From Syntrophales bacterium (lineage in GTDB: Bacteria; Desulfobacterota; Syntrophia; Syntrophales; PHBD01), in contig OY764159.1 in NCBI GenBank assembly GCA_963668175.1, forward strand, positions 3,392,001 through 3,456,000: DNA of 64,000 nt, written 5' to 3'. The position numbers and the translations under genes are program-made. Positions 43,314-64,000 of the stretch are shown one piece after another. Below the pieces are notes generated by a model. That model was given only the letters and a program-made list of their open reading frames with translations, was not told the DNA's origin and did not search any database. Every line of letters begins with the position of its first letter. Position 1 is the first letter of the stretch.

Positions 43314-46300
43314 TTATCTATTCACGAAAGAAATGACGAAACTAGTGCCGGCACGAGTTTCCATGCGGAGCGACCCCCGAAGTTGCTTTATCAGCGCACC
43401 TACTAATTTGAGCCCTAGCGAATCGCATCTTTCCACGGCAAAGTCTTCATCTAGACCCACGCCGTTATCGCTAACGGCCAAAACGAAGTTATTTCCCGTA
43501 TCCGGGCGCAGGTCAATGCAGATTTCACCCGATCCATGGACTTGTCTCCATGAATCTGTAAAGGCATGCTTCAAAGAATTGGAGACGAGCTCATTAATGA
43601 TAAGAGCACAGGGGATCACGGTATCGATGTCGAGGTCGACATTCTCGACAGTGATCTTCATTTTGACGTTTCCTTCCGTCACACCATACGAAAGAAAAAG
43701 GTTGGCTGTCAGGCTGTGAATGTACTCGGCAAGATCGATCTTTGCCAACGACTCGGACTGATAGAGTTTCTCATGGATGAGTGACATTGAGTATATACGA
43801 TTCTGACTTTCACGGAACAGATCGGCGGCAGGTCCGTCCTGAATATACGACGTCTGCAGGTTGAGCAGGCTACTGATAATTTGAAGATTGTTCTTGACCC
43901 TGTGATGAATTTCCCTCAGCAGGACTTCTTTTTCCTTCAGCGACCTTCTGATCTGCTCTTCGGCCTTAGTCATTTCTAAGACAAGCCCCGCATTCTCCAG
44001 CGAAATAGCCGCCTGAGCCATCAAGAGTTCCGTCATCTGTGTCTTCTCCCGGGTAAAGGCGGCCTCGAAGAGACGGTTTTCCAGATACAAGATGCCGATC
44101 ATGCGGGACTGTTTGACAATTGGCAGACAGAGGACGGACCGCAGCTGCATTTCCTGAACTTCCGGATTGTCTTTAAACAGTTCCTCCCGGCAGGCATCGG
44201 CAAGTACTACCCTCTCCCCGGTTCGTTGCACATAGCGAACGATGGCCCCGCATATTTCAGGAGCTTCATCAAGGTTCCTGTCTACGGTTACCGTCTGTTT
44301 CTTTGTGACGTGGCTTTCCGACCTGACGAGCAGATTACCAACGTCTTCAATCAGCAGGTAGCCATGCTGGGCGCCCGAACTCTCGATGACGACGTTCATA
44401 ATCTTCTTCAGCAGGGCTTCCTGCTCGATTTCTGCGGAGATAGCAAGCGATGATTTCATCAGATAATCGACATCGAGGTCAGGAAGAGTGAAGGACTTAA
44501 CGGCAGCACCCAACTCTGTAAGCGAACCCTTATCTTCCTTGAAATAGCCCGGGTATTTTTCCGTTACGATTATTTCTTTTCGTCGGGCGCGGCATTTCCT
44601 GTACAGGCGCGCCGCCTCTTTGAAATACAAGCCTTCCGAATTCCGGCCAGTGTTCAGAAGAAGTTCTGCGAGGCATTCATGAAGATGCCCCTCCAAAAAA
44701 ACATAATTCTGCCGGCGGGCGGCGTCGATGGCATCGAGGTAGAGACTTCGAGCTTCCCGGAAATCGGCCGTCACTCTGGCCAGCTCCGCGTAAAGCAAGG
44801 CCAGATAGGGCTTCAGCAGCGGACCCAACGCCGCCCACGTTTCAATCTTATTGATAAGCGGATCGATCTCCGCATGCAGGTCGGCCCTGTTCCGGCCATC
44901 AGAATTCTTTTCGTGGAGCTTAATTGCATTTAGTACCCGAAAGACATGCCACTGCCTCTTTAAGACATTATCGGTCAGGCCGGACAGATATCTCTTGACG
45001 GCGGCGAGGCATTCTCCGGCCTCTTCATATTCTCCGCAATAATAATGAGCGAGTGCCCTGTGGACGAAGTAGCTTCCCGCGGAGGCAATGTGATTGCTCT
45101 GGTCCCAGGTCTGAATCTTCAGCGCCATATCTATTGGCGTATATTCCCCTTTCATGGGTTCGATCCAGCCCGCCTGCATCGCTTCGGCCAGCCCAACTGA
45201 GAAGGAGAGATGGTATCTCTGCGAGAACTGCAGGCATTCCGCCGCATAGTCTTCGATCAGGGAAAAGTCCGCCCCCTGCACCTGCAGATTCCACATCAGG
45301 GGACCATAGGAAAGGCCCGCGTTATAGAGATCACCGCAGTTCTTACCGCACTGGATCGCCTTGAGACTATAGTCGGCAATATCGCGGGGGTGGCTTCGCG
45401 AATGCATGTTGCACCACACGATTCCGTTCATGCCGCGAGTAGCTCCGAAAGTATTTGGATATTTCGCCGACAGATCGCGAGCCAAGTCTTCGTAGCGGAA
45501 TGCAGGCGGGAAATTCCCTTCTTCTCCAAGCTGAAGCCCCATGATACTGAACGAATAGATGACCGATTCGTCCATGCCGCCGGCCAGGCAATGCTGTGTC
45601 GACTGGGCAGCGGAAAGATAGAGCTGCGGCACAAGTCCGGACATGTATAAATCGGGGATAAGCTCACTGTAGAAGGCAAGTTCTATCTTACTTCGCCTGT
45701 CCGTGGTGAAGGGCATATTTAGTATCGTGTCCCAGATGTCGATGTCTTTCGCCGAAACATCAGTCATCAGCGCCAGCCTTCTTTCGTCCGCTTCCCTGGA
45801 ATCGTCTGGAATAGCCTTGCCGAAATAGGCCAGCCCCCGGTTGGCGGTTTCAATGGCCTTGATGAAGTTGCCGATGGAGGACAGTGACGTGGTCTGTTCC
45901 GCGAGGCATTCCGCCTTGTCCATATCGGACCTGGCGTGATCGAGCAGCTGGTTGAGCAGATTCTCTGAATTCCCATAGTGGCCGCACATCAGCTCCGTCT
46001 TTGCCGCCTTCTGGTACGTCCTGAAGGTACTTTCGTAATACGAATCCTCCCAACAGTCATCCGGCAGTAGGTTTCTAGCGAGCCTGAAGTACTCGTTTGC
46101 GGCCTCAGTCGCCAGGGAATCCAGGGCCTTAATGCCCGCGTGGTAATTGATGTCCGAAAGGAAATAGGCATACACTTTATCGGGACGTTCTTCCCGTCCG
46201 AGATTGAGGTGCGAAACGATCGTGAAAAGATTATCCACTTTCTCTATTTTCGCACCTTCAGAAATCGACGCAAGGAGGTGGTCGCCCACCTGACGGTGAA

Positions 46301-49716: not shown

Positions 49717-50283
49717 ATGATCCCCTATCAGAAGGAAAAGATCGAAAACGCAATCTGTTTCTTTGCGCAAGAACACAAGAAACATTCTCGTAATCTATTA
49801 CACCAGACATTCTTATATAAATACCTCGCCTTATTCGATTTCGGCTATTTAAAAGAATATGGGAAAGCCCCCCTTGGTTTGAAATACCTGGCGATGCAGC
49901 GAGGGCCTGTACCAACGGAAATTTATAACCATCGAGATGACCCACGTTGGTCCGATCTATTTTCCTTTCAAAAAGATCCCGACGGTCACTATATGATCAA
50001 TTCCAAACTGAAGCCCGATCTGAGTTATTTCAGCAAACGGGAACTTAAATTTATGAATCGATTAATAGAAATCTATGCCAGAAACTACGTGACATCAAAA
50101 CTGATGAGCGATGTCAGCCATCAAGAAATTCTGGCTTGGAAACGGACATGGACACAAAAACCCAATAGCATCATAGACTATTCCCTCGAATTCAAGGGCA
50201 ATGTCTTTGCGAAATCGGACGACGAACTGACTTTTTCTGAGGAAGTATATCTTATTCAGCAAGGCATTGAACATTGCATCTAA
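49717..50283 (+). CDS. Panacea-domain (SocA/DUF4065-like) antitoxin
   Basis: KYLALFDF...Y.AMQRGPVP..IY and SHQE.AW motifs; likely ATG at 49717 (ORF-track start 49705). Confidence 0.75.
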   Translation: MIPYQKEKIENAICFFAQEHKKHSRNLLHQTFLYKYLALFDFGYLKEYGKAPLGLKYLAMQRGPVPTEIYNHRDDPRWSDLFSFQKDPDGHYMINSKLKPDLSYFSKRELKFMNRLIEIYARNYVTSKLMSDVSHQEILAWKRTWTQKPNSIIDYSLEFKGNVFAKSDDELTFSEEVYLIQQGIEHCI

Positions 50284-50729
50284 CCGTCGGTGACGTGATC
50301 AGATGGGACGGCTTCAAATACCCGAGGGATGGCGATATTAAAGCCAGATGGTTTATATACTTGGGACGGTCATCGTTATTGTCCTCACCCATTTTCTCAT
50401 ATCTTTGCACCACCACAACACAACTTCAGCATTTCGGACAGGGCAATTCCCGGGCGAATCACGTTTTTAGAAGATTCACCTGCCAACAACACCCTGTTTT
50501 TGATCAAGATTGTATCCTTGATTTTACGGAAGAGCTTTATGATATCCCAACTGAAAAGCTTGATGAATGCCAACGCCTTATCGAAATCAAAGGCAGATTA
50601 GGTGAAGAGGACATGAGAAATGCATATAATCAATTTCTCAAAGTCGGCACGGTGTCTCCGCGTGTCATGCTGGATATCCATGAAAGCTTTAACCTTGCCG
50701 GAATCACTGGTCTAAAGAAGCCCAAATAA
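50274..50729 (+). CDS. Putative toxin with a PemK/MazF-like N-terminus, cognate to the Panacea antitoxin
   Basis: Overlaps the antitoxin stop; GDVI...F.......KARWFIYLG...TTTT pattern and IKGRL. Confidence 0.55.
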   Translation: MHLTVGDVIRWDGFKYPRDGDIKARWFIYLGRSSLLSSPIFSYLCTTTTQLQHFGQGNSRANHVFRRFTCQQHPVFDQDCILDFTEELYDIPTEKLDECQRLIEIKGRLGEEDMRNAYNQFLKVGTVSPRVMLDIHESFNLAGITGLKKPK

Positions 50730-50751: not shown

Positions 50752-51966
50752 TCATTGGAGCAGGTATTTGGCGGCCTTCTGCCTTATCTGCTTGAGCGCC
50801 TTGGAAATCGGGCTGTGATTGGCATACCCCAGCAACTTCCCAATTTCAGCCATCTTCGTAATCCCATTCCTCAGACAGATGACCACCCGCCGCTCCTTGG
50901 GGTCAAGGATCGAAATGAAGTCCTCCCACAGCAGATTCTCATGGAGCTCGCTCCATCTCCCGTGAACCGGTACCGTATCGTCCAGCTCGACGAACGACAC
51001 CTTCACCTTCGATCGCTTGCTGTATAGCTTCCTCTCGAAGTCTTCCTTCTCGTTAGACCAGAGGCTCGAAAAATCATCTTCAACCCTGTTGGACTTTATG
51101 GCATCGATGATAGATCTCAGCTTGCCGTCGCGATCAGCCAAGGCGAGCATTTCGTTGGCCACCTCCCAGGCTCCTTCTTCGCCTTCCCACAGAGTGCCAC
51201 CACAACGCGGGGTGTTGGCTTTGACGGACTTCGGGTATTTTCTTCTGAGTTTCTCTAAATCCTTCACATCTTTTTCATTTTCTGGATCCGTCCGGCTGAA
51301 CGCTTTCATTCTTTGCTCAGCTGCCGAATATATGAAAGGGAGCCAGTAATCCAGGTTATGTGATAACGTTACAAGGGGATCATCTTTTGAAAAAGCTCGT
51401 CTTTTAGATGACGAATTTAACAGCGGCCAAATGTAACACGAAAATGCTTTTGACAGCCGGTCCTCGAAATTGGATTTGAGAAAAGGATCCCTTAAATGCT
51501 GATGCATTCCAGGTGGCCATAACGCAGATTTAAAAAGTGGAAGGTTGAATCGGTTCAAGATTTCTTGCGGAAGCAAATGGTACAATGGAACATATGCTTC
51601 ATATCGTGGCATTCCCGTATCGGGGAGAAGATAAATATTCTTATTTCTATATTTCTCAACCCAGGATGACCCTGCAGGAATCTTACATTGAAAGAAATCA
51701 GGCCTCAGATGGCCTGCTTCCCATAACATATTCCATTGGCTAATAAAGACTTCCTTCTCAATTGTCGTATCATGGGTTTCTTTTTCAAAATCTATTGGTA
51801 TATATACGAATTCGGGCTGTTTTTTCTTTGCCGGACACGGAACGAATCTAAAAAAGTGTGCGGCAGACAAATGCCACACACTCGGGAATATCTCAGGATC
51901 AAGCTTATCCCCCTTAGCAATTTCCTCCTGAGCAAACCTGAGGGTATCGACGTCGTACTCCTTCAT
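50752..51966 (-). CDS. Hypothetical protein with a C-terminal sigma-70 region-4-like HTH
   Basis: LDPKERRVVICLRNGITKMAEIGKLLGYANHSPISKALKQIRQK. Confidence 0.65.
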   Translation of the reverse strand: MKEYDVDTLRFAQEEIAKGDKLDPEIFPSVWHLSAAHFFRFVPCPAKKKQPEFVYIPIDFEKETHDTTIEKEVFISQWNMLWEAGHLRPDFFQCKIPAGSSWVEKYRNKNIYLLPDTGMPRYEAYVPLYHLLPQEILNRFNLPLFKSALWPPGMHQHLRDPFLKSNFEDRLSKAFSCYIWPLLNSSSKRRAFSKDDPLVTLSHNLDYWLPFIYSAAEQRMKAFSRTDPENEKDVKDLEKLRRKYPKSVKANTPRCGGTLWEGEEGAWEVANEMLALADRDGKLRSIIDAIKSNRVEDDFSSLWSNEKEDFERKLYSKRSKVKVSFVELDDTVPVHGRWSELHENLLWEDFISILDPKERRVVICLRNGITKMAEIGKLLGYANHSPISKALKQIRQKAAKYLLQ

Positions 51967-52148: not shown

Positions 52149-54887
52149 ATGCCTCTGTCCTGGAATGAGATCAAAGATCGCGCTCTGAAGTTTTCTCACG
52201 AATGGGAACACGAATCCTCAGAAAAAAGTGAAGCCCAGACCTTCTGGAACGAATTTTTCGAGGTCTTTGGTATCCACCGGCGGCGAGTGGCAACTTTCGA
52301 GAAGCCGATCAAGAAATCCGATGGCGCCGGCGGGTTCGTGGATCTGCTATGGAAGGGGATCCTTGTCGCGGAACATAAGTCTCGCGGGAAGGATTTAACC
52401 CGTGCATATAAGCAAGCTACAGACTATTTCCCCGGCATCAAGGAAAATGATTTACCTCGATATATCCTCGTTTCCGATTTTGCCCGTTTTCGCCTTTATG
52501 ACCTTGAGGAAAACAAGCAGCACGAATTCCCGCTCAGAGATTTATATAAGAACGTCCGACGTTTCGGCTTTATCGCAGGTTATCAAACCACGTCCTACAA
52601 GGAACAGGATCCGGTAAATATCGATGCTGCGGAACGGATGGGCAAGCTTCACGACAAGCTGAAAGAGTGCGGATATTGTGGTCACGAACTTGAAGTGTAC
52701 TTGGTTCGTCTGTTGTTCTGCCTTTTCGCCGAAGACACCAGCATATTCGAGCGTCGTCAGTTTCAGGATCTCATTGAACAGCGAACCGCTGAAGATGGGC
52801 AAGACCTTGCCCACTGGCTGGCTGACCTGTTTCAGATACTCGATACCCCGCCTGATAAACGCCTCAAGAAGACTGACGAGCAATTATCGGCTTTTCCTTA
52901 TGTGAACGGCAGTCTGTTTGTGGAACGCCTGTCAATCGCAGCTTTCGATAGTTGTATGCGCCAGCTTCTGCTGGACTGCTGTGTTCTTGATTGGAGCAGG
53001 ATTTCACCGGCCATATTTGGCAGCCTGTTCCAATCCGTTATGGATGAGGGGAAACGACGGAACTTAGGTGCGCATTATACAACAGAGAAGAACATTCTTA
53101 AGCTCATCGGACCTCTATTTCTTGATGAGTTACGAGCCGAATTTGAACGTCTGAAAACCCAGCCTCGGCGCCTCGCTGAGTTTCATCACCGAATTGCTGA
53201 ACTGAAATTTATGGACCCAGCATGTGGCTGTGGGAACTTCCTCGTAATCGCATACAGGGAACTGCGTGAGCTGGAACTTGATATTCTCCGGATTCTGGCT
53301 AAGGGAAAAGATACGCGATCTCTGGAAGTGTCGATGTTTGAGATTTTGTGCGATGTCGACCAGTTCTATGGGATCGAAATAGAGGAATTTCCTGTTCAGA
53401 TAGCTCGCACGGCCTTGTGGCTGATGGACCATCAGATGAACATGAAAGTCTCGGAAGAATTCGGGACGTACTTTGTAAGGTTGCCCCTTCGCAAATCAGC
53501 GACCATCGTGCACGGCAATGCATTGCGCATAGACTGGCGCGAGATCGTTAGGCCGGAAGATCTCAACTATATCCTTGGCAATCCGCCCTTCGGCGGGAAA
53601 CAGTATCAAACAGAAGAACAGAAAGCAGATATGGCATCTGTTTTGAAGGATGTTCCGGGCGCAGGGGTACTGGATTTTGTTTCACCATGGTACCGAAAAG
53701 CGGCGGACTATATGAAGAAAAATCCAGCGATGAAGACTGCCTTTGTTTCCACCAATTCAATTACACAGGGTGAACAAGTCGCTGTATTATGGGCAGATTT
53801 ACTCGGACGAAACGTCAAAATTCATTTTGCACATCGTACCTTTCAGTGGTCAAGTGAAGCACGCGGCAGAGCTGCCGTGCATTGTGTTATCATCGGGTTT
53901 GCCCTGTATGATATTCCGGAAAAACGCCTTTTTGATTATGAGACTTTAAAGGCGGAACCTCATGAAATAAAAGTAAAAAACATTAATCCTTATCTTGTAG
54001 ATACAACGGACATATTGGTTGGAAAACGCCGCAAAACCCTTCAGCCTGTACCACAATTAGTTTTTGGCAGCATGCCGAATGACGGAGGTAATTTGCTCCT
54101 CACCAAAGAAGAGCGATCTAATATGATTAAGAATGCGCCAGCTGTTGCGCTTTATATTAAACGATTCATGGGTAGTGAAGAATTCATCAATGAGCAAGAA
54201 CGATACTGCCTTTGGTTAAAAGGAATCTCTCCAGCCGTCCTGAAGAATTTGCCAGAAGTACTGGAACGAGTCGAGAACGTCAGGAAATGCCGTTTATCGA
54301 GTCGCCGATCAACAACAAACGCGCTTGCTAATATTCCAATGCTTTTTGGAGAGATCAGGCAACCAGAGACTGATTATTTAGCAATTCCGGAAGTATCATC
54401 AGAGCGCCGGCGTTATATTCCAATAGGATTCGTGAGTAAAGATGTTATAGCCAGCAATAAAATTTATACTATGAGAGATTCAACACTATACCACTTCGGT
54501 GTTTTATCATCGGCAATGCACATGGCTTGGACACGAGCCGTATGTGGGAGATTAAAGAGTGATTACCAATATTCCTCAGGAATCGTTTATAATAACTTCC
54601 CATGGCCCGAGTCAGTCTCTGACAGACAAAAGAAGACTATCGAAGTTGCGGCGCAACTTGTCCTTGCCACGCGGGCAAAATATCCGGATTCGTCTCTAGC
54701 CGACCTTTATGATCCCCTAGCTACACCAATTGATTTAACCAAGGCTCATAACAAGCTTGATGACGCCGTAGATGAAGCCTATACGAAGCGGAGGTTTGCC
54801 GGAGACAGGGAGCGAGTGGCGTTTTTACTCGATCTCTACCAACAGACCACAAGCTCTCTGCTTTCCATGAAGCTAAAGCGCCGGTAA
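52149..54887 (+). CDS. Type IIL restriction-modification enzyme, MmeI family (nuclease + N6-adenine MTase + TRD)
   Basis: FVDLLWKG...EHKS (PD-ExK), GAHYT, DPACGCGNF (motif I), NPPF (motif IV), YNNFPWP, SLADLYDP. Confidence 0.92.
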   Translation: MPLSWNEIKDRALKFSHEWEHESSEKSEAQTFWNEFFEVFGIHRRRVATFEKPIKKSDGAGGFVDLLWKGILVAEHKSRGKDLTRAYKQATDYFPGIKENDLPRYILVSDFARFRLYDLEENKQHEFPLRDLYKNVRRFGFIAGYQTTSYKEQDPVNIDAAERMGKLHDKLKECGYCGHELEVYLVRLLFCLFAEDTSIFERRQFQDLIEQRTAEDGQDLAHWLADLFQILDTPPDKRLKKTDEQLSAFPYVNGSLFVERLSIAAFDSCMRQLLLDCCVLDWSRISPAIFGSLFQSVMDEGKRRNLGAHYTTEKNILKLIGPLFLDELRAEFERLKTQPRRLAEFHHRIAELKFMDPACGCGNFLVIAYRELRELELDILRILAKGKDTRSLEVSMFEILCDVDQFYGIEIEEFPVQIARTALWLMDHQMNMKVSEEFGTYFVRLPLRKSATIVHGNALRIDWREIVRPEDLNYILGNPPFGGKQYQTEEQKADMASVLKDVPGAGVLDFVSPWYRKAADYMKKNPAMKTAFVSTNSITQGEQVAVLWADLLGRNVKIHFAHRTFQWSSEARGRAAVHCVIIGFALYDIPEKRLFDYETLKAEPHEIKVKNINPYLVDTTDILVGKRRKTLQPVPQLVFGSMPNDGGNLLLTKEERSNMIKNAPAVALYIKRFMGSEEFINEQERYCLWLKGISPAVLKNLPEVLERVENVRKCRLSSRRSTTNALANIPMLFGEIRQPETDYLAIPEVSSERRRYIPIGFVSKDVIASNKIYTMRDSTLYHFGVLSSAMHMAWTRAVCGRLKSDYQYSSGIVYNNFPWPESVSDRQKKTIEVAAQLVLATRAKYPDSSLADLYDPLATPIDLTKAHNKLDDAVDEAYTKRRFAGDRERVAFLLDLYQQTTSSLLSMKLKRR

Positions 54888-55971: not shown

Positions 55972-56817
55972 ATGAGTACAACTCTCATGAATGCGAGTGA
56001 TCCTTGCGAGGAGAATCACCGCGCGCGATCAAGCTTCGTACGGGGACTTGTGCAACGTTCCGGTGGCCCCGCCGTCGCATCCTCCGTATTCGCCACGAAG
56101 ATCCCAAAGAGGATTATACAGTTTTGGGATGATCTGGATCGACTGCCTGGAGATGTGGGTGAGTGCATTGAGACATGGAGGAAGATAGAAGAACAGGGTG
56201 TTGAGAGAATACTTTTCGACAAACGCCAGGCAAGAGATTTTATTTGGCGAAGACTCGGTGCACGATACAAACGGGCCTATGACAAGTGCTATCATCCGGC
56301 AATGCAGTCAGACTACTTTCGACTCTGTTATATTCTCGTGGAGGGTGGTTGCTACATAGACGCTGACGATATTTACAATGGTTCTCAAATCCAACACCTA
56401 TTCAGCGATGGTCGATTAAAAATTCAACCTCTATGCTATGACATGGCGACGAATATGATGGTGCCAACATCACTTTTTACTAAACCAGGAGCAAACGCCG
56501 TGAGTTGGATTTTCTATTTTAACAACAATCCGCTAATTGCTGGCGACGGGCACCCCCTAATTGAGCGCGCACTTACTCAAGCCACCTTATCCCTTGAGGA
56601 GGATATGACTAACGGCTTGCCAGAAATCCAATCGACAACTGGTCCCGGAAATCTTACCAAATCGATATTTGACGCTGTGACTGAGAGCGTCGAGATCGAA
56701 CAAACCCTGCTTGTGCTGTGCGATTGGGAAAACGTTGCGGAAAGCAGGTGGGATCTCAGCTATAGGAACGACCCAAGGAACTGGAGACTTTCAAACTGCC
56801 GAGGTTATCAAGAATGA
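55972..56817 (+). CDS. Glycosyltransferase, GT32 / DXD sugar-binding (OCH1/TcdA-catalytic-like)
   Basis: IPKRIIQFW, QSDYFRLC...GGCYIDADD, TGPG; start uncertain (55957, 55972 or 55987). Confidence 0.82.
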   Translation: MSTTLMNASDPCEENHRARSSFVRGLVQRSGGPAVASSVFATKIPKRIIQFWDDLDRLPGDVGECIETWRKIEEQGVERILFDKRQARDFIWRRLGARYKRAYDKCYHPAMQSDYFRLCYILVEGGCYIDADDIYNGSQIQHLFSDGRLKIQPLCYDMATNMMVPTSLFTKPGANAVSWIFYFNNNPLIAGDGHPLIERALTQATLSLEEDMTNGLPEIQSTTGPGNLTKSIFDAVTESVEIEQTLLVLCDWENVAESRWDLSYRNDPRNWRLSNCRGYQE

Positions 56818-56845
56818 TATGCCAGGAACATGTGGAGGGGGATGA

Positions 56846-59032
56846 ATGAATCTCACCTCCCCCTGGAACGCACCTTCGAAGTTCTTGTTTCGCCTTGCGA
56901 TGAAATGTCGGAGGTTGCTACCGAGAAAAAAATGTCAAGCATTTGGACTCTTGAATAAACAAGAGCGTCCGAGGATAGGGCGCATTTACGTCATCAATCT
57001 GGATCGCCAACCAGTTCGATGGGCCGAGATGGAACAGGAACTCAGACGCGTGTTGGATTGGTCTGGAGTTGAACTTTGGAATCTTACTGAGCGATATCCT
57101 GCTGTCGATGCTAATCACTTCTTACAAGAACCGCTAAAAGATGCCGACATTGATCCAATTTATACACTCGGAGATCAGCTCTACGTAGAGCCCCAACCAC
57201 TAGCGCTACCCACTCGGATAGAACTCAATTCTCCGATCCAAATGAGTCGACCTGAGATTGCAATTGCTCGCTCACACATCGACGTCTGGCGACAGGTCGC
57301 GGAGAGTAATCATGAGTACGTACTCATTCTTGAAGACGACGTGTGGTTTCGATCCGGGTTTGCCCAACATATGAACCAAGCATGGGCCGAAATAGAAACC
57401 GAAGGCAATAAGAAAGGCATTTTCGACATTCTCTATCTGTCCTATGAAGAGGTGAAGCACGGTGCCCCGAAGACCTTCCTTTCAAGCAATGTGTTCCGCC
57501 CAGTACGTGGGCTCTGGTTTCTGTCTGGATACGTTGTATCGCGCGAAGGTGCTGCGAAGCTTCTTCGACTCCTTCCTTGTCGAGGACCTGTGGATCTGTG
57601 GATAAATCACCAGTTCGGATTTCTGGATGTACGGGCGATTAGACGGCCTATCATCAACCAGCGACGCGATATTAGCTCCACTAACTCATATTCAATACTT
57701 CCCACGCTCACGAAAATCGGCGCTATCACCAGTGAAGGTGCATCCTTGTTTCATGTTCGCCCGAGTGAACGCCCTGTGTTTGCATTTGGGCCTATAGGTT
57801 CTGGCCTTTCATCACTGGCAATGGCTCTGTCCATGCTCGGATACAGATGCTGCAGCGATCTCCAAGCGCTCCCAGGTCCTGAACTTGAAATGCTCCTTGC
57901 AGGAGGCGGTGATCGAGTTTTTGACGCATATGTGAACATCAAGTCTTTGGCGGATGAAGCCCGTGCCCTTATAGAGCATTATCCTCAGGCAAAATTCATT
58001 ATCACCGCTAGCAAAACTGGAATTGCAGGTGATAATGATTTAAGAATTCTAGATGATATCAATGGAGCTGATATTGCCTTTCTTCATGTAGAAGCATCCA
58101 ACAAATGGCAGGTCGTTTGCGAACACCTCAGATGCGCACCGCCCGCTTGTTCCTTCCCTGAGTTAGCCGACCTTGGACAAAGACAGCTCCTCTGCGGAAC
58201 CATTGAAGCGGACTCAGTCCTGAGCTGCGAGACTCCTAAACGTGATATGTCGCCATGGGTTGTTGAGCCACGTCAGTGGTGGCAAGGCATTCATTCAACC
58301 CCGATAGAAAGGGGATCATCGATCGTCAAAACTCCCGTTAGAGTCAGCGACTGTCTGGAAATTCTCGACGCAAGACGTTGGTTTCCACGAGACGATACCT
58401 TCTCCGGCAACCTGGCGTTGTTTCGTCCCTCAAATATTGAGTTCCGGTCTGGTCTCGGGGCTGCGCTCAGTATCAAAAGGGAATCCCTGGGTGTTCGAGA
58501 ATATAGCGCTGCATCGTTAACCAGTCATGACCGATACTTATTCGGACGATTTGAGGCAATCATTAAGGCGTCGAACGTGCCTGGTGTGGTTACCGGATTT
58601 TTTCTCCATCGCGATTCACCGAGGCAGGAAATTGATATCGAAATTGCGGGAAATAGAACGGATCGTCTCTTGGTCAATGTCTTTTACAATCCTGGCGGCG
58701 AGGGCGCGAAGTTTGACTACGGATATAGAGGTGCAGCAAGTTATATCAACCTTGGTTTTGACGCATCAGAATCCGACCATCGGTTCGCAATTGAATGGAA
58801 GCCGAGCGAGATTCTATGGTTCGTTGACAATCGCCTAGTTCATAGGCGCGCTGAGTGGGAACCCACGCCGATTCCTCACCTCCCGATGGCCCTCCATGTA
58901 AACGCTTGGCCATCTCGCTCCAAAGAGCTTGCCGGTCGTCTAACCAACCGACGACTCCCAACCGCAACTTTCATAAGATCAATTGCACTGAAAGCAAACT
59001 TAGTTGACGGCAATGGCGTAGCTGTATCTTAA
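56846..59032 (+). CDS. Fusion protein: GT25 glycosyltransferase + P-loop sulfotransferase/kinase-like domain + GH16 glycoside hydrolase
   Basis: IYVINLDRQPVRW, SH...W, LILEDD (GT25); FGPIGSGLSSLAMALSMLGYR...YPQAKFI...WQVVCEHL (sulfotransferase-like); GVVTGFF...QEIDIE (GH16). Confidence 0.8.
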   Translation: MNLTSPWNAPSKFLFRLAMKCRRLLPRKKCQAFGLLNKQERPRIGRIYVINLDRQPVRWAEMEQELRRVLDWSGVELWNLTERYPAVDANHFLQEPLKDADIDPIYTLGDQLYVEPQPLALPTRIELNSPIQMSRPEIAIARSHIDVWRQVAESNHEYVLILEDDVWFRSGFAQHMNQAWAEIETEGNKKGIFDILYLSYEEVKHGAPKTFLSSNVFRPVRGLWFLSGYVVSREGAAKLLRLLPCRGPVDLWINHQFGFLDVRAIRRPIINQRRDISSTNSYSILPTLTKIGAITSEGASLFHVRPSERPVFAFGPIGSGLSSLAMALSMLGYRCCSDLQALPGPELEMLLAGGGDRVFDAYVNIKSLADEARALIEHYPQAKFIITASKTGIAGDNDLRILDDINGADIAFLHVEASNKWQVVCEHLRCAPPACSFPELADLGQRQLLCGTIEADSVLSCETPKRDMSPWVVEPRQWWQGIHSTPIERGSSIVKTPVRVSDCLEILDARRWFPRDDTFSGNLALFRPSNIEFRSGLGAALSIKRESLGVREYSAASLTSHDRYLFGRFEAIIKASNVPGVVTGFFLHRDSPRQEIDIEIAGNRTDRLLVNVFYNPGGEGAKFDYGYRGAASYINLGFDASESDHRFAIEWKPSEILWFVDNRLVHRRAEWEPTPIPHLPMALHVNAWPSRSKELAGRLTNRRLPTATFIRSIALKANLVDGNGVAVS

Positions 59033-59131
59033 CATCGTGCTCGCTGGAATCTGCTAGATTACGCTGATCGCTTTGCATATAGTTTTTGTGACATAAACTA
59101 TGAAAACCACCAACTGGAGGTCACTAGCATC

Positions 59132-60796
59132 ATGAATATTCTGTCCTATAACCCCGGTCATGATGGTGCGATTGCTTGTCTGGGAGACGCGCAATTGGTG
59201 GTTTCGATTGAATCGGAGAAGAACTCGAATTACCGATACTCCCCTGTATCAAGTCATGACGTGTTCAACGTTCTTGGCGAACTTGACGAAATGCCCGACG
59301 TTATTTGTACCGGCGGTTGGTGGCCACGCGAAGAGCACTTACTCGGGTCGCATGCTCATGTCGGGTACCGTGGTGTGATGAGGAGCGACATCATAATAGA
59401 CAAACGGCGCCTATTAGGAAGACCAGTCCACTATTTCTCTTCTTCTCACGAGCGGTCGCACATACTTTGTGCTTTCGGCATGTCAAGTCTACCGAAAGGC
59501 ACTCCATGCTACGCGTTGGTATGGGAAGGCGCGATCGGCGCTTTCTACGAGATTGATTCTGAGCTGAACATAATGATGCTTGCCGATGTCCTGAATGAAC
59601 CGGGGAATCGCTTTACCTCGATCTACGGCTTGGCCGACCCAACCTTTCCGAAGAATGCGCCCTTTTCTCGCTTCTCAGATGCTGGGAAGCTCATGGCCTT
59701 GGCTTCGTTTTCAAATCGCAGCACCCCTTCAGCAGAAGAGGAAAAGCTGATGGACTTTCTATTGGGCTCCCCACATGTCCAATTGAGTTTGTACGAAGAT
59801 CTTGAGCATTCACGATACTACAACGTGGGGGTGGATGATCCAGAATTTCGCAACTTCGCAGGTATTTTTAGCGACAAGATATTTGATATCTTCTATCAAT
59901 TCGCGAAGGTGAATGTGAAGAAAGGCTTGCCATTACTCATCGCAGGCGGATGTGGTCTAAATTGCGACTGGAATAGTAAGTGGAAGGACTCGGGCCTTTT
60001 TCCCGAAGTCTTCGTGCCACCTGTTGCAAATGATTCAGGTTCTGCGATCGGGACAGCGATTGACGCCCAGTTCCACTATACTGGGGACCCAAAAATTGAT
60101 TGGAATGTATATTCAGGCCTTTGCTTCGACACGACTGGATCTTTCGATATGGCGCGGTATGATCTCTACGAGGCTGATGATGAAATGATTGCCGACATGT
60201 TGGCCAATGATCTCATCCTGGGATGGGTGAGCGGCAAATATGAAATCGGTCCGCGGGCTTTGGGCAACCGTTCAATTCTTGCCGCACCGTTCCGAGAGAG
60301 CACGAGAACGTGGTTGAACGAAATCAAGCAACGCGAGCAATTCCGTCCGATTGCTCCTGTTTGCTTGGAAGAAGAGGCTGCGCAGTGGTTTGGCTGCGAC
60401 CACACGAGTCCGCATATGCTTTATACGTATAGTGCAAAAACGGATGCGCTAGCGGCTGTTACTCACGTGAATAAGACTGCCCGCATTCAGACGGTGTCAT
60501 CTGCATCCAACCGAAGCTTGTACAACCTGCTCATCGCATTCAAGGCGCGTACTGGTTACGGTGTCTTGTGCAATACCTCGCTGAATTTCAAAGGTAGAGG
60601 ATTTATTAACAAGATAGATGATCTTTCAACATATGTCATAAAGCATAATTTGGATGGCTTTGTGGTTGAAGGGCGAAGCTATATTTTGAAGTCGTCGAGG
60701 AGTTATCAGGCATACTTGAAGATTCGGTCGAGTAGCGCGCTGAATAGACAAGTGGCAGGGTATCGCATGTTTCCATTGGCAATGAACAAACTTTAA
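59132..60796 (+). CDS. O-carbamoyltransferase, NodU/CmcH family
   Basis: PGHDG, SHERSH, AGKLMALA, AGGCGLNC, NDSGSAIG, EIGPRALGNRS, IKQREQFRP, ARIQTV, NTSLN. Confidence 0.9.
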   Translation: MNILSYNPGHDGAIACLGDAQLVVSIESEKNSNYRYSPVSSHDVFNVLGELDEMPDVICTGGWWPREEHLLGSHAHVGYRGVMRSDIIIDKRRLLGRPVHYFSSSHERSHILCAFGMSSLPKGTPCYALVWEGAIGAFYEIDSELNIMMLADVLNEPGNRFTSIYGLADPTFPKNAPFSRFSDAGKLMALASFSNRSTPSAEEEKLMDFLLGSPHVQLSLYEDLEHSRYYNVGVDDPEFRNFAGIFSDKIFDIFYQFAKVNVKKGLPLLIAGGCGLNCDWNSKWKDSGLFPEVFVPPVANDSGSAIGTAIDAQFHYTGDPKIDWNVYSGLCFDTTGSFDMARYDLYEADDEMIADMLANDLILGWVSGKYEIGPRALGNRSILAAPFRESTRTWLNEIKQREQFRPIAPVCLEEEAAQWFGCDHTSPHMLYTYSAKTDALAAVTHVNKTARIQTVSSASNRSLYNLLIAFKARTGYGVLCNTSLNFKGRGFINKIDDLSTYVIKHNLDGFVVEGRSYILKSSRSYQAYLKIRSSSALNRQVAGYRMFPLAMNKL

Positions 60797-60827: not shown

Positions 60828-61229
60828 TCATTGCATATGGTATTTCCGAACAACACCCGTAACGACTCCCGCCAGCTTCATCTCCGTTCTTGGGCTGATG
60901 GCGGGGTACTTCGGGTTGGCGGCCTCCAGGACGATGTTCCGGCCGCGGCGGGTGAAATATTTCATGGTCCAATCCCCGTCGACCTGGGCGACGACGATGT
61001 CACCATTCTTTGGGGTTCTCCCCTTTTCGCAGATCACCAAATCCCCTTCCAGGATGCCGGCGCCGATCATCGAGTCGCCGGTCACTTCCAGGAGGAACGA
61101 CTGGCCGGGCCGCACGCATAGGAATTGATCGATCGAGATGATGTCCCGCAGCGCCTCCTCTTCCGGCGATGGGAACCCGGCGGTAACGCTTCCAACGACA
61201 GGTACTTCAGGCGTACGTTCTCTTTCCAT
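60828..61229 (-). CDS. UmuD/LexA-like S24 autopeptidase lacking an HTH
   Basis: AGFPSP cleavage region, GDSM catalytic Ser, TMK catalytic Lys. Confidence 0.88.
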   Translation of the reverse strand: MERERTPEVPVVGSVTAGFPSPEEEALRDIISIDQFLCVRPGQSFLLEVTGDSMIGAGILEGDLVICEKGRTPKNGDIVVAQVDGDWTMKYFTRRGRNIVLEAANPKYPAISPRTEMKLAGVVTGVVRKYHMQ

Positions 61230-61235
61230 GCCCGA

Positions 61236-61264
61236 AGCTTATAGTACGATCGTACTAAAGTCAA
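61236..61264 (-). promoter_or_regulatory. Sigma-70 promoter with a perfect 16-bp palindromic operator
   Basis: TTGACT-17 nt-TAAGCT; the spacer holds TAGTACGATCGTACTA (61242-61257). Confidence 0.65.
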
Positions 61265-61284
61265 GGGGGTTTGTTCCCTGAACA

Positions 61285-61749
61285 TTATTTCAGTATTCTT
61301 TGGTCGAATGCGTAGGTTACGGGATCGCCATATTTCAATTTGCTGAAATCGGGATGAAGGGGATTGATGATATAGTTGAATTCCGTATCAACGATTACGC
61401 TCGGCACTACCAACACCAGTGAGGCTTTTCTTATTGCCCACATCGTGCCCAGCATCTGGGTTGATGCTGGAACTGGATCTAATTTCCAATCGAGCGGCAG
61501 ATCTTTTTCAGATATTTGAACACACAAGCTGTCGTCAAACGAAACAGGGATGTAGACGTAAAGATCGAGTACCGCAACCGCCTCAATATGAACAAGCATT
61601 TCGAGGGCGGCCAGGGACTTGCTCCCGGCCGTGTAAATCAGTGGTGTCCCTTTTTTATTCCAGCGACCACCGTAGTTTTTCGCGCCTTCCCCATCGAAAG
61701 CTGTTGAAGCGTGTCGCGCCTTCGTCATCCTCCATGACGTAATCATCAT
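61285..61749 (-). CDS. RES-domain toxin (NAD+ phosphorylase / ADP-ribosyltransferase-like)
   Basis: WR...GEGA..YGGRWN..G...IYTA...LAALE, VPS, NYIINPLHPDF. Confidence 0.9.
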   Translation of the reverse strand: MMITSWRMTKARHASTAFDGEGAKNYGGRWNKKGTPLIYTAGSKSLAALEMLVHIEAVAVLDLYVYIPVSFDDSLCVQISEKDLPLDWKLDPVPASTQMLGTMWAIRKASLVLVVPSVIVDTEFNYIINPLHPDFSKLKYGDPVTYAFDQRILK

Positions 61750-62303
61750 GAGAAGACACCATGCTCGATACGACCAAGGAGATCCTCGACTTCACGGGCA
61801 CCAATCTCAGTGTTCGCATACTCTAATGGAATCTCCCCCCCTAGAGCCTTCTTGGGTGTCTTAAGCCACTGCTGTGCCTGGTCTCTGCCCCCGAGCACTC
61901 TTGCAGCATTTTCAAAGAGGATACCTATCCTCAGTAAGCGATCGGATTCGTCTGCATGAAGACGTCCTTCTCTACGGCGCCGGGCGAGTGTCCGATCGGG
62001 AATACACAATACCCTGGCAAGCTCGGACAAGGTAATATTCATGTAATCGCTTAAGTATTTGAAATTCTTTAGGGGTAACCCCTCTTTCACTATTTTAATA
62101 AGCGTAGAACTGTTCCCCGCGGGCAGACCAAGAGAAGACCCTGTATGAGATTCCTTGCCGATAACTTTTTCAAAGATAAGCCAAGCATCTGCCATTCTTT
62201 GGTATCCTTCAGGCACGTCCGGTATTTCACCTTTACTCGCCATAACCACCATAAAATCTTTATTTATCTGAGTTTTATCTCCCTTTACCTTCCTTTCTCG
62301 CAT
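61746..62303 (-). CDS. Xre/MbcA/ParS antitoxin
   Basis: HTH region RTLARRR...L..DESDRLLR; C-terminal WLKTP..ALGG..PL...T..GAREVEDLLGRIEHGVF. Confidence 0.9.
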   Translation of the reverse strand: MRERKVKGDKTQINKDFMVVMASKGEIPDVPEGYQRMADAWLIFEKVIGKESHTGSSLGLPAGNSSTLIKIVKEGLPLKNFKYLSDYMNITLSELARVLCIPDRTLARRRREGRLHADESDRLLRIGILFENAARVLGGRDQAQQWLKTPKKALGGEIPLEYANTEIGAREVEDLLGRIEHGVFS

Positions 62304-62324
62304 TGCTAATACCCTCCTCTCTGT

Positions 62325-62370
62325 ATGCCATTAGGTATAATAATTTATGCCATGTGGCATCCTTTGTCAA
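62325..62370 (-). promoter_or_regulatory. Xre-RES promoter with two operator palindromes
   Basis: TTGACA-17 nt-TAAATT; ATGCCATGTGGCAT (62347-62360) and ATGCCATTAGGTAT (62325-62338). Confidence 0.65.
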
Positions 62371-62451
62371 GAGCTCTTTAACACGCAATGATGAAATATC
62401 AATTCCGAGGCAGGTTAATTGACATATAAGTTTGGCTAGGGCAGGCATTTA

Positions 62452-62560
62452 TTCCCGAACGGGAACTATTTCGCCTGTTTTGCCCTTTACCATGGCTGAT
62501 ATTCCCGAACGGGAATAATATGTCATTTTCACTATTGTTGCCATTTTTACCAAATGGTGA
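62452..62560. repeat. Palindrome TTCCCGAACGGGAA twice, 50 bp apart, plus a degenerate third copy
   Basis: Copies start at 62452 and 62502; TTACCAAATGGTGA at 62547. Confidence 0.7.
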
Positions 62561-62592
62561 AAATGCCTTTGGGAGTGAAAACTCGGCCGCGG

Positions 62593-63510
62593 TTACACTC
62601 CCAGATGGTCTCTCAACTTCTTCACCGCCTGCTGATGCTTTGCCTTGCTCATCCTGGCGATGTTCACGAGCTTCCATTTGACGGCCGGCATATTCTCGAT
62701 GCCTTCCATCTCCAGCAGCTCCCACTGAGGAGCCCCCTCTTTCACCGAGACGATGAACTTCTTCTCCGGGAGGGTCATTTCTCGGTTAATCAACGAAACA
62801 AGCTCCTCCCTGGCCCGCTCAAGGTTCTCTACAGAAACAGCCTCAGGGGTCATTCCGCTGAACTCCATTTCATAAACAGACTGGATATCCTTAAAGCTCG
62901 GATTCAGGAGTTCAACAATCGGCCGGTCATGGCTGATGAGATAGACGATGAAGGCTTTTCTCAGGGTCGGCGTAAACTCCCCGTCCCGCTGGAACACGAG
63001 GATGTCGAACAGATCTCTTGGATGCTGGCGATCGAGGGCTGCGCAGATCTTCCCTGCGTATAACTCATCCTCCGCGAGAGTCCTGCATTTTACCGATAAC
63101 GCAAAGGCCTCCCGTGCTTTTGCAGTCATCGCTCTGAATACAGGAGGATAAATAGTGCCCCGCAAAACCAGATTTGGTTCAATCTTCACGGACACTTCCT
63201 GGTATTGAACGAGCAACCCACTCACCAGACCCGTCCCCTTCGACCTTTTGGGCGTGATCCTGGTCCCGGGAATTCTGTCTTTAATTTTCTGGGTAATCCG
63301 GACGAGCGCTTCGCTGATTTCCTGATGGGACGGCTCCCGCTCCTTGATGGGAAGATACACAAGATCGATGTCTACGGAGATCCGTGGGAGATCCCTGATA
63401 AAGTAATTGATGGCCGTTCCACCCTTCAATGCGAAGACGGATTCTTCGTCAGCAAATGGCAGTATCCGTAGCACCAGCCTTGCTCGTTTAAAATCTATAC
63501 TTTCTTTCAT
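62593..63510 (-). CDS. AbiEii/AbiGii nucleotidyltransferase toxin (type IV TA)
   Basis: ALKGGTAIN...PRISVDIDL and GKICAALDRQHPRDLFD. Confidence 0.92.
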   Translation of the reverse strand: MKESIDFKRARLVLRILPFADEESVFALKGGTAINYFIRDLPRISVDIDLVYLPIKEREPSHQEISEALVRITQKIKDRIPGTRITPKRSKGTGLVSGLLVQYQEVSVKIEPNLVLRGTIYPPVFRAMTAKAREAFALSVKCRTLAEDELYAGKICAALDRQHPRDLFDILVFQRDGEFTPTLRKAFIVYLISHDRPIVELLNPSFKDIQSVYEMEFSGMTPEAVSVENLERAREELVSLINREMTLPEKKFIVSVKEGAPQWELLEMEGIENMPAVKWKLVNIARMSKAKHQQAVKKLRDHLGV

Positions 63511-64000
63511 CCCGGCATTACCTCACTTTCCGCGGGAACGGTTATCTTGTATTTTGCGTTATAGCGGCCCTTTTGTACGATTACATACTTTCCTCTTCCG
63601 AGATCGACTTTCTCCAAAGCAAGCTCTGACAACCAAGCATGTTCGCATCTATCAGCCATGTACAAAAACAGCCTCTTCACCTTGACCGAACGGCATAGTT
63701 CCAACAGGGTCTGCACGACGTCTGGCCTTAGGGAAACGAGGTTCTGCATGATCAGGTAGGCTTCTGAAAACCCGGCATGCTTTGGAACAAGGTGCAGCAT
63801 TTCCATCATGGCCCTCTCCGGCGCTGACATCCTGACCGAGAAGTCCTTCTCGTCATGTTCCACGAATCCCTGAGTCTCCGCCGGGAAAAGATTCGTGCGT
63901 GTTACAAGTATCTCAACACCGAGTTGTTCACTATTAAACCAGGAAGGTTTTTTCATAGCGTATGGACCATAGAGATACACGAGGACCTGTCTTACTCGAA
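63507..64000 (-). CDS. AbiEi antitoxin (type IV TA), 5' end beyond the window
   Basis: SAPERAMME, LRPDVVQTLLELCRSVKVKRLFLYMA, DLGRGK; frame open to the window edge. Confidence 0.88.
   Translation of the reverse strand, partial: RVRQVLVYLYGPYAMKKPSWFNSEQLGVEILVTRTNLFPAETQGFVEHDEKDFSVRMSAPERAMMEMLHLVPKHAGFSEAYLIMQNLVSLRPDVVQTLLELCRSVKVKRLFLYMADRCEHAWLSELALEKVDLGRGKYVIVQKGRYNAKYKITVPAESEVMPG

Follow-up and report, generated by a model that had tools for sequence, protein, structure and literature searches.

What product is made by three adjacent genes that bring together two glycosyltransferases, a glycoside hydrolase fold and a carbamoyltransferase, and whom does that product serve? The genes lie in a 64,000-nucleotide (nt) stretch of a Syntrophales bacterium genome (assembly GCA_963668175.1, contig OY764159.1, positions 3,392,001 to 3,456,000), referred to here as the window, whose coordinates are used throughout. 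A sequence-only reading had proposed an undescribed cytoplasmic glycosyl- and carbamoyl-transfer operon inside a defence island, perhaps an anti-phage module. Our results indicate that the three genes form a cassette that, judging from its sequence relationships, has been passed almost unchanged between very different bacteria. Loci, genomes and proteins are given L, G and P numbers, respectively.

A conserved three-gene cassette

The window carries three intact, co-oriented open reading frames (ORFs) on the + strand, as had been read, with intergenic gaps of 28 and 99 nt. The start of the first gene was moved from 55972 to 55987. Both the genome's recorded gene (P0275, 276 amino acids (aa), 100% identical) and the related loci begin at the equivalent of 55987, so the start at 55972 is probably 15 nt too early. 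The cassette consists of the following features.

55987..56817, + strand: GT32-type glycosyltransferase (retaining GT-A, DxD), 276 aa; PF04488 (Gly_transf_sug) at 4e-7; ORF listed as 55936/55987-56817
56846..59032, + strand: fusion protein of GT25, decayed sulfotransferase-like and GH16 domains, 728 aa; Pfam
59132..60796, + strand: NodU/NolO-type O-carbamoyltransferase, 554 aa; Pfam, with NodU as best NCBIfam model at 246 bits
55976..60723, + strand: shared DNA block, the mobile cassette as it survives in the window; blastn against 34 genome loci

A scan of one genome per species yielded 34 genome loci, and the metagenome set comprised 80 loci. The fusion protein had 2888 homologues at E ≤ 0.001 among the candidates scored. 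The best 120 of these 2888 were 72–87% identical, and the few named homologues among the best 120 came from different phyla. About 2,300–2,900 protein clusters at 90% identity in public data match the cassette genes. At the DNA level, 55976–60723 was 66–91% identical per aligned segment to the 34 genome loci, whose records name 11 phyla. The closest set (82–91%) was titled delta-proteobacteria, Chloroflexota, Bacteroidales, Planctomycetota, Omnitrophota, Nitrospirota and others, and a second clade stood at 66–75%. The three-domain architecture of the fusion was kept down to 35% identity among representatives of clusters at 50% identity.

The three genes are conserved together. The GT32 gene lay directly upstream of the fusion gene in all 32 genome loci with upstream sequence and in all 57 metagenome loci with at least 900 nt upstream. 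The carbamoyltransferase gene lay downstream in 31 of 34 genome loci and in 60 of the 61 metagenome loci with at least 1800 nt downstream; L018, L022 and L025 lack it, and several other genome loci have a truncated or broken copy. Other arrangements were also found. The carbamoyltransferase gene precedes the GT32 and fusion genes on one Rhizobium and one Sphingobium plasmid. In G303 it is convergent with a fusion–GT32 pair, with insertion sequences between; there the carbamoyltransferase is 79% identical to that of the window and the GT32–fusion pair 54–55%. Since the three genes have been joined repeatedly in different orders, a functional link is indicated rather than mere co-transfer. Locus L136 of this genome (G303:C1:953500-972500) is flanked by IS3-type transposases in a composite-transposon-like arrangement, and a type ISP restriction-modification (RM) gene lies 4.7 kb away.

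Two-gene forms without the carbamoyltransferase occur on Klebsiella and Aliarcobacter plasmids and in several genomes. Gene decay was assessed in 116 loci by a script that placed each gene in one of four classes (intact, contig-cut, broken, no match). The fusion was intact in 93, cut in 14 and broken in 9, of which 3 have divergent N-termini only. The GT32 gene was intact in 80, cut in 8, broken in 10 and without a match in 18, mostly at contig ends. The carbamoyltransferase was intact in 77, cut in 14, broken in 15 and unmatched in 10, so that by these script classes it was broken or without a match in 25 of 116 loci, against 9 of 116 with a broken fusion. The decay classes and the two-gene forms together mark the carbamoyltransferase as a frequent but dispensable add-on to a core of GT32 plus fusion. 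In the variant lacking it, a 267-aa gene abuts the GT32 gene (L022:8324-9124, L025:2487-3287); this gene had no Pfam or PDB match, and ESM Atlas gave trypsin-like peptidases as a lead only.

The outermost blastn limits were 55976 and 60724, and most matches stopped at 60717–60723. The window copy is without a conserved 5' leader of about 125 nt and without the last ~65 nt of the carbamoyltransferase gene, both found in most close relatives. From 60724 to the stop, its carbamoyltransferase carries an unrelated 24-residue tail that relatives do not share. The leader (L001:9020-9160, L004, L006, L003, L007) can be read as an ORF of 32–38 codons, M-x-K-G-R-C-I-L-K-x-D-G-F-E-V-P-G-V-F-Y..., whose stop overlaps the GT32 start; stops interrupt it in L007, L011 and L033, and its coding is doubtful. 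We did not count the 38-codon form as a cassette component, as it is interrupted in several loci and absent from the window. An Rfam search of the leader (L007, 8800-9200) gave one chance-level match only, and a search for promoters and terminators around the cassette yielded no more of them than shuffled sequences did.

No recurrent fourth gene was found among the 905 flanking ORFs of 113 loci, where no family occurred in more than 9 loci. The commonest flank families were integrases (9 loci), IS110 transposases (5), DUF499-type ATPases, Fic proteins and group II intron reverse transcriptases (4 each) and HsdM (3). The cassette contains no recombinase and is not bracketed by terminal repeats, and its flanks differ between loci; it is thus neither a transposon nor an integron cassette. 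No DNA match to it was found in the phage collection or in complete Escherichia coli genomes. PADLOC-DB 2.0 returned no family at E ≤ 0.001 for any of the three proteins, which agrees with the earlier view that this is not a named defence system, and the literature searched gave no description of the cassette.

Recent import and purifying selection

The fusion gene was found in none of 40 relatives of the window genome, 8 from the same family and 32 from the same order. With seed genomes included, carriage was 5 of 401 in the window's phylum, 3 of 401 in the phylum of a genome titled "Clostridia" and 4 of 401 in that of a Thermoleophilia-titled genome. A tree of 28 fusion proteins, labelled with phyla from the record titles of metagenome-assembled genomes (MAGs), required 17 label changes (minimum 10; shuffled mean 18.5; 33 of 200 shuffles as low), and by these labels the tree appears to ignore host taxonomy. 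The cassette copies are recent imports on plasmids, integrative elements and at least one virus-classified contig; the one found carries TerL, DnaB and a Lar-like gene. Two 28,293-nt contigs, L011 and L012, agree in their match coordinates and in their identities and are assigned to MAGs titled Gallionella and Methylobacter. They are either one mobile contig binned twice or an element common to two hosts, and they call for caution in host assignment.

All three genes are under purifying selection. Pairwise dN/dS (nonsynonymous over synonymous divergence) against the window was 0.066–0.24 for all three genes in unsaturated pairs; dS was 0.29–0.83 for pairs with the closer loci and either exceeded 1 or was saturated for those with the distant clade. 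Only one value fell outside, that of the L032 carbamoyltransferase (0.55, dN 0.9), which is probably a misalignment. Within the fusion, GH16 was most constrained (0.12), followed by GT25 and the sulfotransferase remnant (0.21 each), and the linker was loosest (0.41).

Predicted enzymes of the cassette

The motifs picked out by the sequence-only reading, DxD (as DADD), EDD and EIDIE, are all present. The motif of the first gene and the parts of the fusion protein are as follows.

56359-56370, + strand: D-A-D-D of the GT32 protein, the DxD metal and nucleotide-sugar motif; D-x-D-D kept in 96 of 96 aligned copies
56873..56926, + strand: cationic amphipathic helix at the fusion N-terminus, residues 10-27; hydrophobic moment 0.62, the protein's highest
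56984..57595, + strand: GT25 domain (inverting GT-A); PF01755 at 8e-15, residues 47-250
57743..58285, + strand: decayed Sulfotransfer_4-like domain, about residues 300-480; PF17784 at 0.0017, residues 311-387
58484..58927, + strand: GH16 domain; PF00722 at 2e-28, 99.5 bits

The first protein matches the GT32 family, with 31 bits to PF04488 against a cut-off of 23, and its nearest ESM Atlas clusters carry PF04488 in 95–98% of members. SDYFR and TTGPGN are also present and are kept in 89 of 96 and 95 of 100 copies, respectively. Profile matches to PDB structures were weak (YeGT 0.032, Och1 0.036, PaTox 0.052), and the AlphaFold model was poor (mean pLDDT 54.8). On this low-confidence model Foldseek gave Och1 (4.8e-5), YeGT (1.2e-4), PaToxG (2e-4) and SetA as leads only; these top matches were all GT-A enzymes, at low TM scores of 0.29–0.44. 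Such weak matches suggest that it belongs with the GT-A enzymes that include both a glycan mannosyltransferase and toxins that glycosylate proteins. The protein shares an SDxxR...GGxYxDxD pattern with its nearest structures, the bacterial GT-A toxins and effectors (PaTox, YeGT, SetA, TcdA/B) and fungal Och1. It differs from them in having no delivery domain, and the resemblance itself is distant (profile E of 0.03–0.05).

The GT25 domain of the fusion protein scored 55.7 bits to PF01755 against a cut-off of 24 and matched COLGALT1 structures at 1e-5; its E-D-D motif (57332-57340) is kept in 113 of 114 copies. The middle domain had been read as a P-loop domain, for which we find a degenerate Sulfotransfer_4 domain instead. 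A P-loop kinase label was rejected, because no Walker A motif (GxxxxGK[ST]) was seen in residues 300-480 and the region is homologous to sulfotransferases. Its score of 18.7 bits lies under the Sulfotransfer_4 cut-off of 22.8, which leaves it outside the family as scored. In two remote members of the fusion family, P0153 and P0165, the match to Sulfotransfer_4 reaches 1e-24 to 1e-27 and a K-T-G-T-T-S loop is present. In the window the former loop for the sulfate donor 3'-phosphoadenosine 5'-phosphosulfate reads PIGSGLSS (57791-57814), and about 30 residues found downstream of the loop in P0153 and P0165 are deleted. The loop varies among close copies, and K-T-G-T-T-S occurs in 0 of 121 aligned copies, taking the most common variants. 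The contrast with the intact P0153 and P0165 therefore points to a dead sulfotransferase which, being still constrained, presumably serves as a scaffold or binding module.

The GH16 domain has its catalytic E-I-D-I-E at residues 595-599 (58628-58642) without the beta-bulge insertion, and ExDxE is kept in 124 of 124 copies. Its sequence is closest to lichenases, whose structures matched at 1.8e-16. This closeness could suit a role in catabolism or salvage, with GH16 breaking down a beta-glucan taken up by the cell and the transferases present only incidentally, a reading that we regard as extremely improbable. The lichenase BglS equivalog model (NF047856) gave only 99.7 bits against a cut-off of 300, and the cassette has no transporter, SusCD pairing or sugar kinase, nor a signal peptide as far as can be judged without a dedicated predictor. 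Moreover, GH16 was fused to a glycosyltransferase in 93 of 93 copies scored whole. In five relatives of 808–929 aa (P0223, P0227, P0229, P0236, P0258), GH16 is 42–47% identical over residues 458-715 and sits C-terminal to a processive-type GT2 synthase with several transmembrane segments. These fusions tie the GH16 subfamily to glycan synthesis and indicate that it may process its enzyme's own product; the role of eraser or release enzyme proposed earlier is possible. The five proteins themselves look like an uncharacterised beta-glycan synthase family with a built-in glycanase or transglycosylase.

Residues 1-45 of the fusion protein carry a net charge of +10, and the helix within them may act as an in-plane membrane anchor. 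Among 10 diverse members (32–45% identity), the charge over residues 1-45 was at least +4 in 9, and the best hydrophobic moment was at least 0.56 in 7. A Kyte-Doolittle scan found no 19-residue stretch at or above 1.6 in the three proteins (maxima 1.07, 1.42 and 0.93), which bears out the absence of a transmembrane anchor noted before; a dedicated signal-peptide predictor was not run.

In the third protein, Carbam_trans_C (8.5e-54, 182 bits) and Carbam_trans_N (1e-21, 78 bits) both scored above their cut-offs. The NodU equivalog model gave 246 bits against a cut-off of 1000 and no nod genes lie nearby, so this is not NodU proper. The phage family PHROG 1601, "Nol-like carbamoyltransferase", matched over the full length at 2e-75. 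HERSH, GGCGLN, NDSG, GPRALGNRS and FRPIAP all occur in the protein and are conserved in more than 96% of copies (HxxxH in 100 of 101, GPRALGNRS in 91 of 94). From the TobZ literature, we take these motifs to serve metal binding and the carbamoyl-phosphate/ATP site. TobZ, GdmN and NovN share the two-domain Kae1-like/YrdC-like architecture and the conserved HxxxH, GGxGxN and GPRALG, and their structures matched the C-terminal half at 5e-32 to 1e-25. The differences from these enzymes are that good alignment is confined to residues 266-514, that the N-terminal half has diverged and that no antibiotic gene cluster surrounds the gene.

The best model matches, NodU and "Nol-like", invite comparison with the Nod-factor enzymes NodU/NolO, which transfer carbamoyl groups, and NodH, which transfers sulfate. 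The decoration logic would be the same, namely a carbamoylated oligosaccharide that in distant relatives is perhaps sulfated. The cassette differs in having no NodABC backbone machinery, acyltransferase or NodIJ exporter, and its hosts are mostly not rhizobia.

The full-length match to a phage family also bears on the proposal that the cassette is a DNA or RNA hypermodification module, in which hydroxymethylated bases are glycosylated and carbamoylated. According to the passages of PMC8670742 on this enzyme, a phage carbamoyltransferase of the NodU family carbamoylates 5-hydroxymethylcytosine (5hmC) in DNA and RNA. It belongs to the same enzyme family as the cassette's and is likewise carried by mobile DNA. 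Phage GT-A and GT-B enzymes that glycosylate 5hmC are described as well (bioRxiv 10.1101/2023.12.21.572611). We nevertheless consider this module very improbable, and the DNA-modification variant of the earlier proposal thus looks unlikely. No thymidylate-synthase homologue, TET/5mYOX enzyme or C5-methyltransferase, and hence no gene to supply hydroxymethylated bases, was found in the cassette or recurring beside it, and GH16 has no place in such a pathway. In the same passages of PMC8670742, the 5hmC carbamoyltransferase co-occurs with thymidylate-synthase homologues of the dCMP (deoxycytidine monophosphate)-hydroxymethylase type only on modified contigs, and carbamoyltransferases beside glycosyltransferases are found on unmodified contigs; the cassette's enzyme stands with two glycosyltransferases and GH16. 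The GT-A enzymes in the bioRxiv source resemble JGT and TarP. Its "GT32" denotes the enzyme of contig 32 rather than the CAZy family, and its passages on these enzymes do not mention GT25.

A possible route to a carbamoylated glycan

Our preferred reading, held tentatively, is that the cassette is a self-contained, horizontally roaming operon for glycan assembly at the cytoplasmic face of the membrane, with a carbamoylated oligosaccharide or glycoconjugate as its product. The cationic amphipathic helix would hold the fusion protein at the inner membrane face. GT25 and GT32 would use common sugars activated by uridine or guanosine diphosphate (UDP or GDP) to build a short beta/alpha-linked glycan, on which GH16 may act as an endo-transglycosylase or trimmer. 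With carbamoyl phosphate and ATP, the carbamoyltransferase would then cap a hydroxyl group of a sugar. Judging from the places in which the cassette is found, its benefit to the host or the mobile element probably relates to conflict.

The role assigned to GH16 follows the logic of fusions between glycosyltransferases and glycoside hydrolases such as NdvB, in which the glycan made by the GT2 domain is processed by a GH17 transglycosylase fused to it. NdvB and Cgs, like the cassette, join a glycosyltransferase to a retaining GH-fold domain; in them this domain acts at the cytoplasmic side on what the enzyme itself has made, as GH16 would here. Small substituents are afterwards added to their products, as we propose for the cassette. 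The cassette differs by pairing GT25 with GH16 instead of GT2 with GH17 or GT84 with GH94, by the absence of transmembrane segments and an exporter, by a separate second GT32 enzyme and by a decoration that would be carbamoyl. It is also a small mobile cassette and not a chromosomal gene of osmoadaptation.

Several points weigh against this reading. Beyond the family assignments, the product, donor and acceptor are all predictions drawn from the genes. The GT32 model is poor, and since both Och1 and protein-glycosylating toxins are among its nearest structures, a protein would suit as acceptor no less than a glycan. Processivity is not known among GT25 enzymes, and GH16 may therefore have no polymer to work on. 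The helix at the fusion N-terminus might have nucleic acid rather than membrane as its binding partner, and with no exporter encoded, a soluble oligosaccharide would not leave the cell.

The cassette is abundant, moves between phyla little changed and is selected in all three genes. If its product is a carbamoylated oligosaccharide, it would represent a new class of bacterial glycan from a portable three-gene kit. If it protects against phages or helps mobile elements, sugar chemistry would join the mechanisms of conflict. Either way, a three-gene cassette is small enough for direct laboratory testing.

Envelope precursors as a possible alternative acceptor

The cassette may instead decorate an inner-leaflet envelope precursor, such as the core of lipopolysaccharide (LPS) or lipooligosaccharide (LOS) or another lipid-linked glycan, borrowing the host flippase. 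The surface would then be changed by serotype or phage-receptor conversion, as by lysogenic-conversion genes. We regard this as unlikely. Soluble or peripheral enzymes of the cytoplasm add the core sugars and need no flippase of their own, and the N-terminal amphipathic helix fits such a role. Carriage on plasmids, integrative elements and a viral contig agrees with it as well. In outer-core sets, GT25 enzymes of the LgtB/LgtE/Lic2A type and GT32 enzymes without membrane spans cooperate at the cytoplasmic face and are exchanged horizontally. The two families are reported together in Acinetobacter LOS outer-core loci (PMC10327509, PMC4172580).

However, inspection of the flanks of genome and metagenome loci never placed the cassette in LPS, capsule or exopolysaccharide loci, and in the window no flippase, polymerase or nucleotide-sugar genes lie near it, as the earlier reading had observed. 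The flank and synteny results thus returned neither of the two computable outcomes that this reading had named as counting against it, a location in LPS-type loci and a failure of the genes to stay together. Unlike the outer-core enzymes, GT25 is here fused to GH16 and a dead sulfotransferase, and a cytoplasmic GH16 has no role in known core pathways. Furthermore, DNA identity of 66–91% across phyla with very different cores would require a near-universal acceptor.

The LPS biosynthesis marker LpxC was sought in 10 carrier genomes. It was found in five (G000, G042, G303, G414, G044), in line with an envelope role. In the other five it was not found; the cassette copies of G043, G449 and G539 are full-length and open, and those of G041 and G511 are broken. 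G043, with a Chloroflexota title, carries all three genes (L005) on a 40-kb contig with conjugation genes, and G449 and G539 carry full-length open GT32–fusion pairs on contigs of 7 and 13 kb. These intact copies speak against envelope decoration, although contigs of 7–40 kb from MAGs may be mis-binned and the genomes incomplete. G041 is the only closed chromosome among the LpxC-negative carriers, and its copy is broken, which favours an envelope role. Overall, the LpxC findings point in both directions. The phylum of the "Clostridia"-titled genome failed as an LPS-free test, since that genome and both other carriers there have LpxC. The titled genome (L016/G042, "uncultured Clostridia bacterium") has a fusion almost identical to that of a Pyrinomonadaceae MAG (L017), and its title taxonomy is doubtful.

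Defence genes around the cassette

The sequence-only reading placed the cassette in a defence island, and an enrichment of defence genes beside its homologues was examined by Pfam within 6 kb. The census covered 31 genome loci with flanking ORFs (L012 was left out as a duplicate, and L002 and L010 have no flanks) and 12 new metagenome loci with at least 6 kb on both sides (L048, L059, L077 and L101 were left out as repeats). Clear defence genes were found in 6 of the 31 genome loci: L005 (prokaryotic Argonaute, two restriction nucleases, GmrSD), L007 (AbiE), L011 (SIR2-HerA, DrmE), L023 (Wadjet JetC/JetD), L026 (type I RM, OLD-type nuclease plus UvrD) and L030 (DUF499/DUF1156, Schlafen, Fic, SNF2-PLD, SAVED). 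They were also found in 4 of the 12 metagenome loci: L076 (BrxL, McrBC), L100 (SMODS, type III RM), L102 (ResIII, DUF1016 nuclease) and L104 (type IIG RM, multiubiquitin set). Weaker cases were the genome loci L013, L032, L033 and L034 and the metagenome locus L090, and no defence genes were seen in the census flanks of L095, L097, L111 and L117.

In total, 11 of 44 loci including the window were clear, or 16 of 44 with the weaker cases. The control, 12 random 12-kb regions from four carrier genomes, gave defence genes in 0 of 12 and mobile-element markers in 4 of 12. The one-sided Fisher p value was 0.05 for the clear cases and 0.01 with the weaker ones. The enrichment is suggestive, and the small control leaves "defence gene" and "any mobile cargo" unseparated. 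A share of 11 in 44 is well below the majority levels of published defence-island screens. The expected enrichment is thus seen in part, as many loci have housekeeping flanks.

These neighbours could reflect anti-phage or anti-mobile-element defence, in which some part of the phage, or else a conserved protein or nucleic acid of the host, would be modified by the enzymes while infection proceeds. We consider this doubtful. The cassette stands beside or between RM/BREX-type genes in the window, L026, L072, L092, L030, L076 and L100, and plasmid copies adjoin DUF262/GmrSD-like, Abi, AbiE, Shedu and RES-Xre genes and a ThiF/multiubiquitin set. Few species carry it, about 1% of those sampled in three phyla, and it is often decayed, both typical of defence genes, and the nearest GT32 structures include the protein-glycosylating toxins YeGT, PaTox and SetA. 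On the other hand, L006, L009, L018, L029, L031, L095, L097 and L117 have housekeeping flanks, and any mobile cargo is enriched in such islands. The cassette encodes no sensor, nuclease, NTPase or other typical defence element. Its carriage on plasmids, and on a virus-classified contig beside a Lar-like anti-restriction gene, fits cargo that helps the element equally well. Of the anti-phage proposal, what stands is a conserved unit outside LPS loci, often beside RM, BREX, Abi, Wadjet, prokaryotic Argonaute or CBASS-like genes; the function itself rests on guilt by association.

A specific form of this idea, a new conflict system that works by building glycans, has in our view a rather small chance of being correct. 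The toxin-like GT32 would add a sugar to a conserved protein or phage component, GT25 would extend it, the carbamoyltransferase would cap it so as to block removal or extension of the mark, and GH16 would edit or reset it. Such a system would need only universal metabolites and would therefore work in any bacterium, hence its spread across phyla nearly unchanged.

Surroundings of the window copy

The genes next to the cassette in the window, which lie outside it and are given as context, are as follows.

52149..54887, + strand: MmeI-family type IIG RM enzyme; five MmeI Pfam domains, PADLOC REase_MTase_IIG at 1247 bits
55098..55841, + strand: zinc-ribbon protein with one transmembrane segment; Pfam Zn_ribbon, Kyte-Doolittle 2.81
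60828..63980, - strand: S24 peptidase, RES toxin, Xre antitoxin, AbiEii and AbiEi; Pfam

The neighbours named earlier, an MmeI-type IIG RM enzyme, Panacea, Xre-RES and AbiEi/AbiEii, were borne out by Pfam and PADLOC, and the S24 peptidase was found in addition. The zinc-ribbon protein had no homologue in the flanks of 113 other cassette loci. Just beyond the window end (L043:6424-8716 in G000), E1-N/ThiF, Prok-JAB and Metal_CEHH genes form a ubiquitin-like conjugation conflict system. The same island continues past the window with a resolvase, a 1370-aa helix-turn-helix protein, a SET-domain gene and a Rep3 replication initiator. This resolvase, the E1-like/JAB/CEHH set, SET and Rep3 give the island the appearance of a plasmid-like mobile element that has integrated and is rich in conflict genes. 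At two further loci, pSHV1 (L041) and L104, the cassette likewise has a ThiF/multiubiquitin set close by.

Between the Panacea gene and the MmeI gene, a 404-aa ORF (50752-51966, - strand) and a 151-aa ORF (50274-50729, + strand) had no Pfam, NCBIfam or PADLOC match; the latter, which overlaps the Panacea gene at its end, may encode the partner toxin. A further gene (43314-48359, - strand) borders the island and encodes a 1681-aa protein with an N-terminal Ser/Thr kinase, an AAA-like region, a GAF-like region and a C-terminal histidine kinase, whose kinase domain matches the PADLOC PD-T4-6 and mad6 models.

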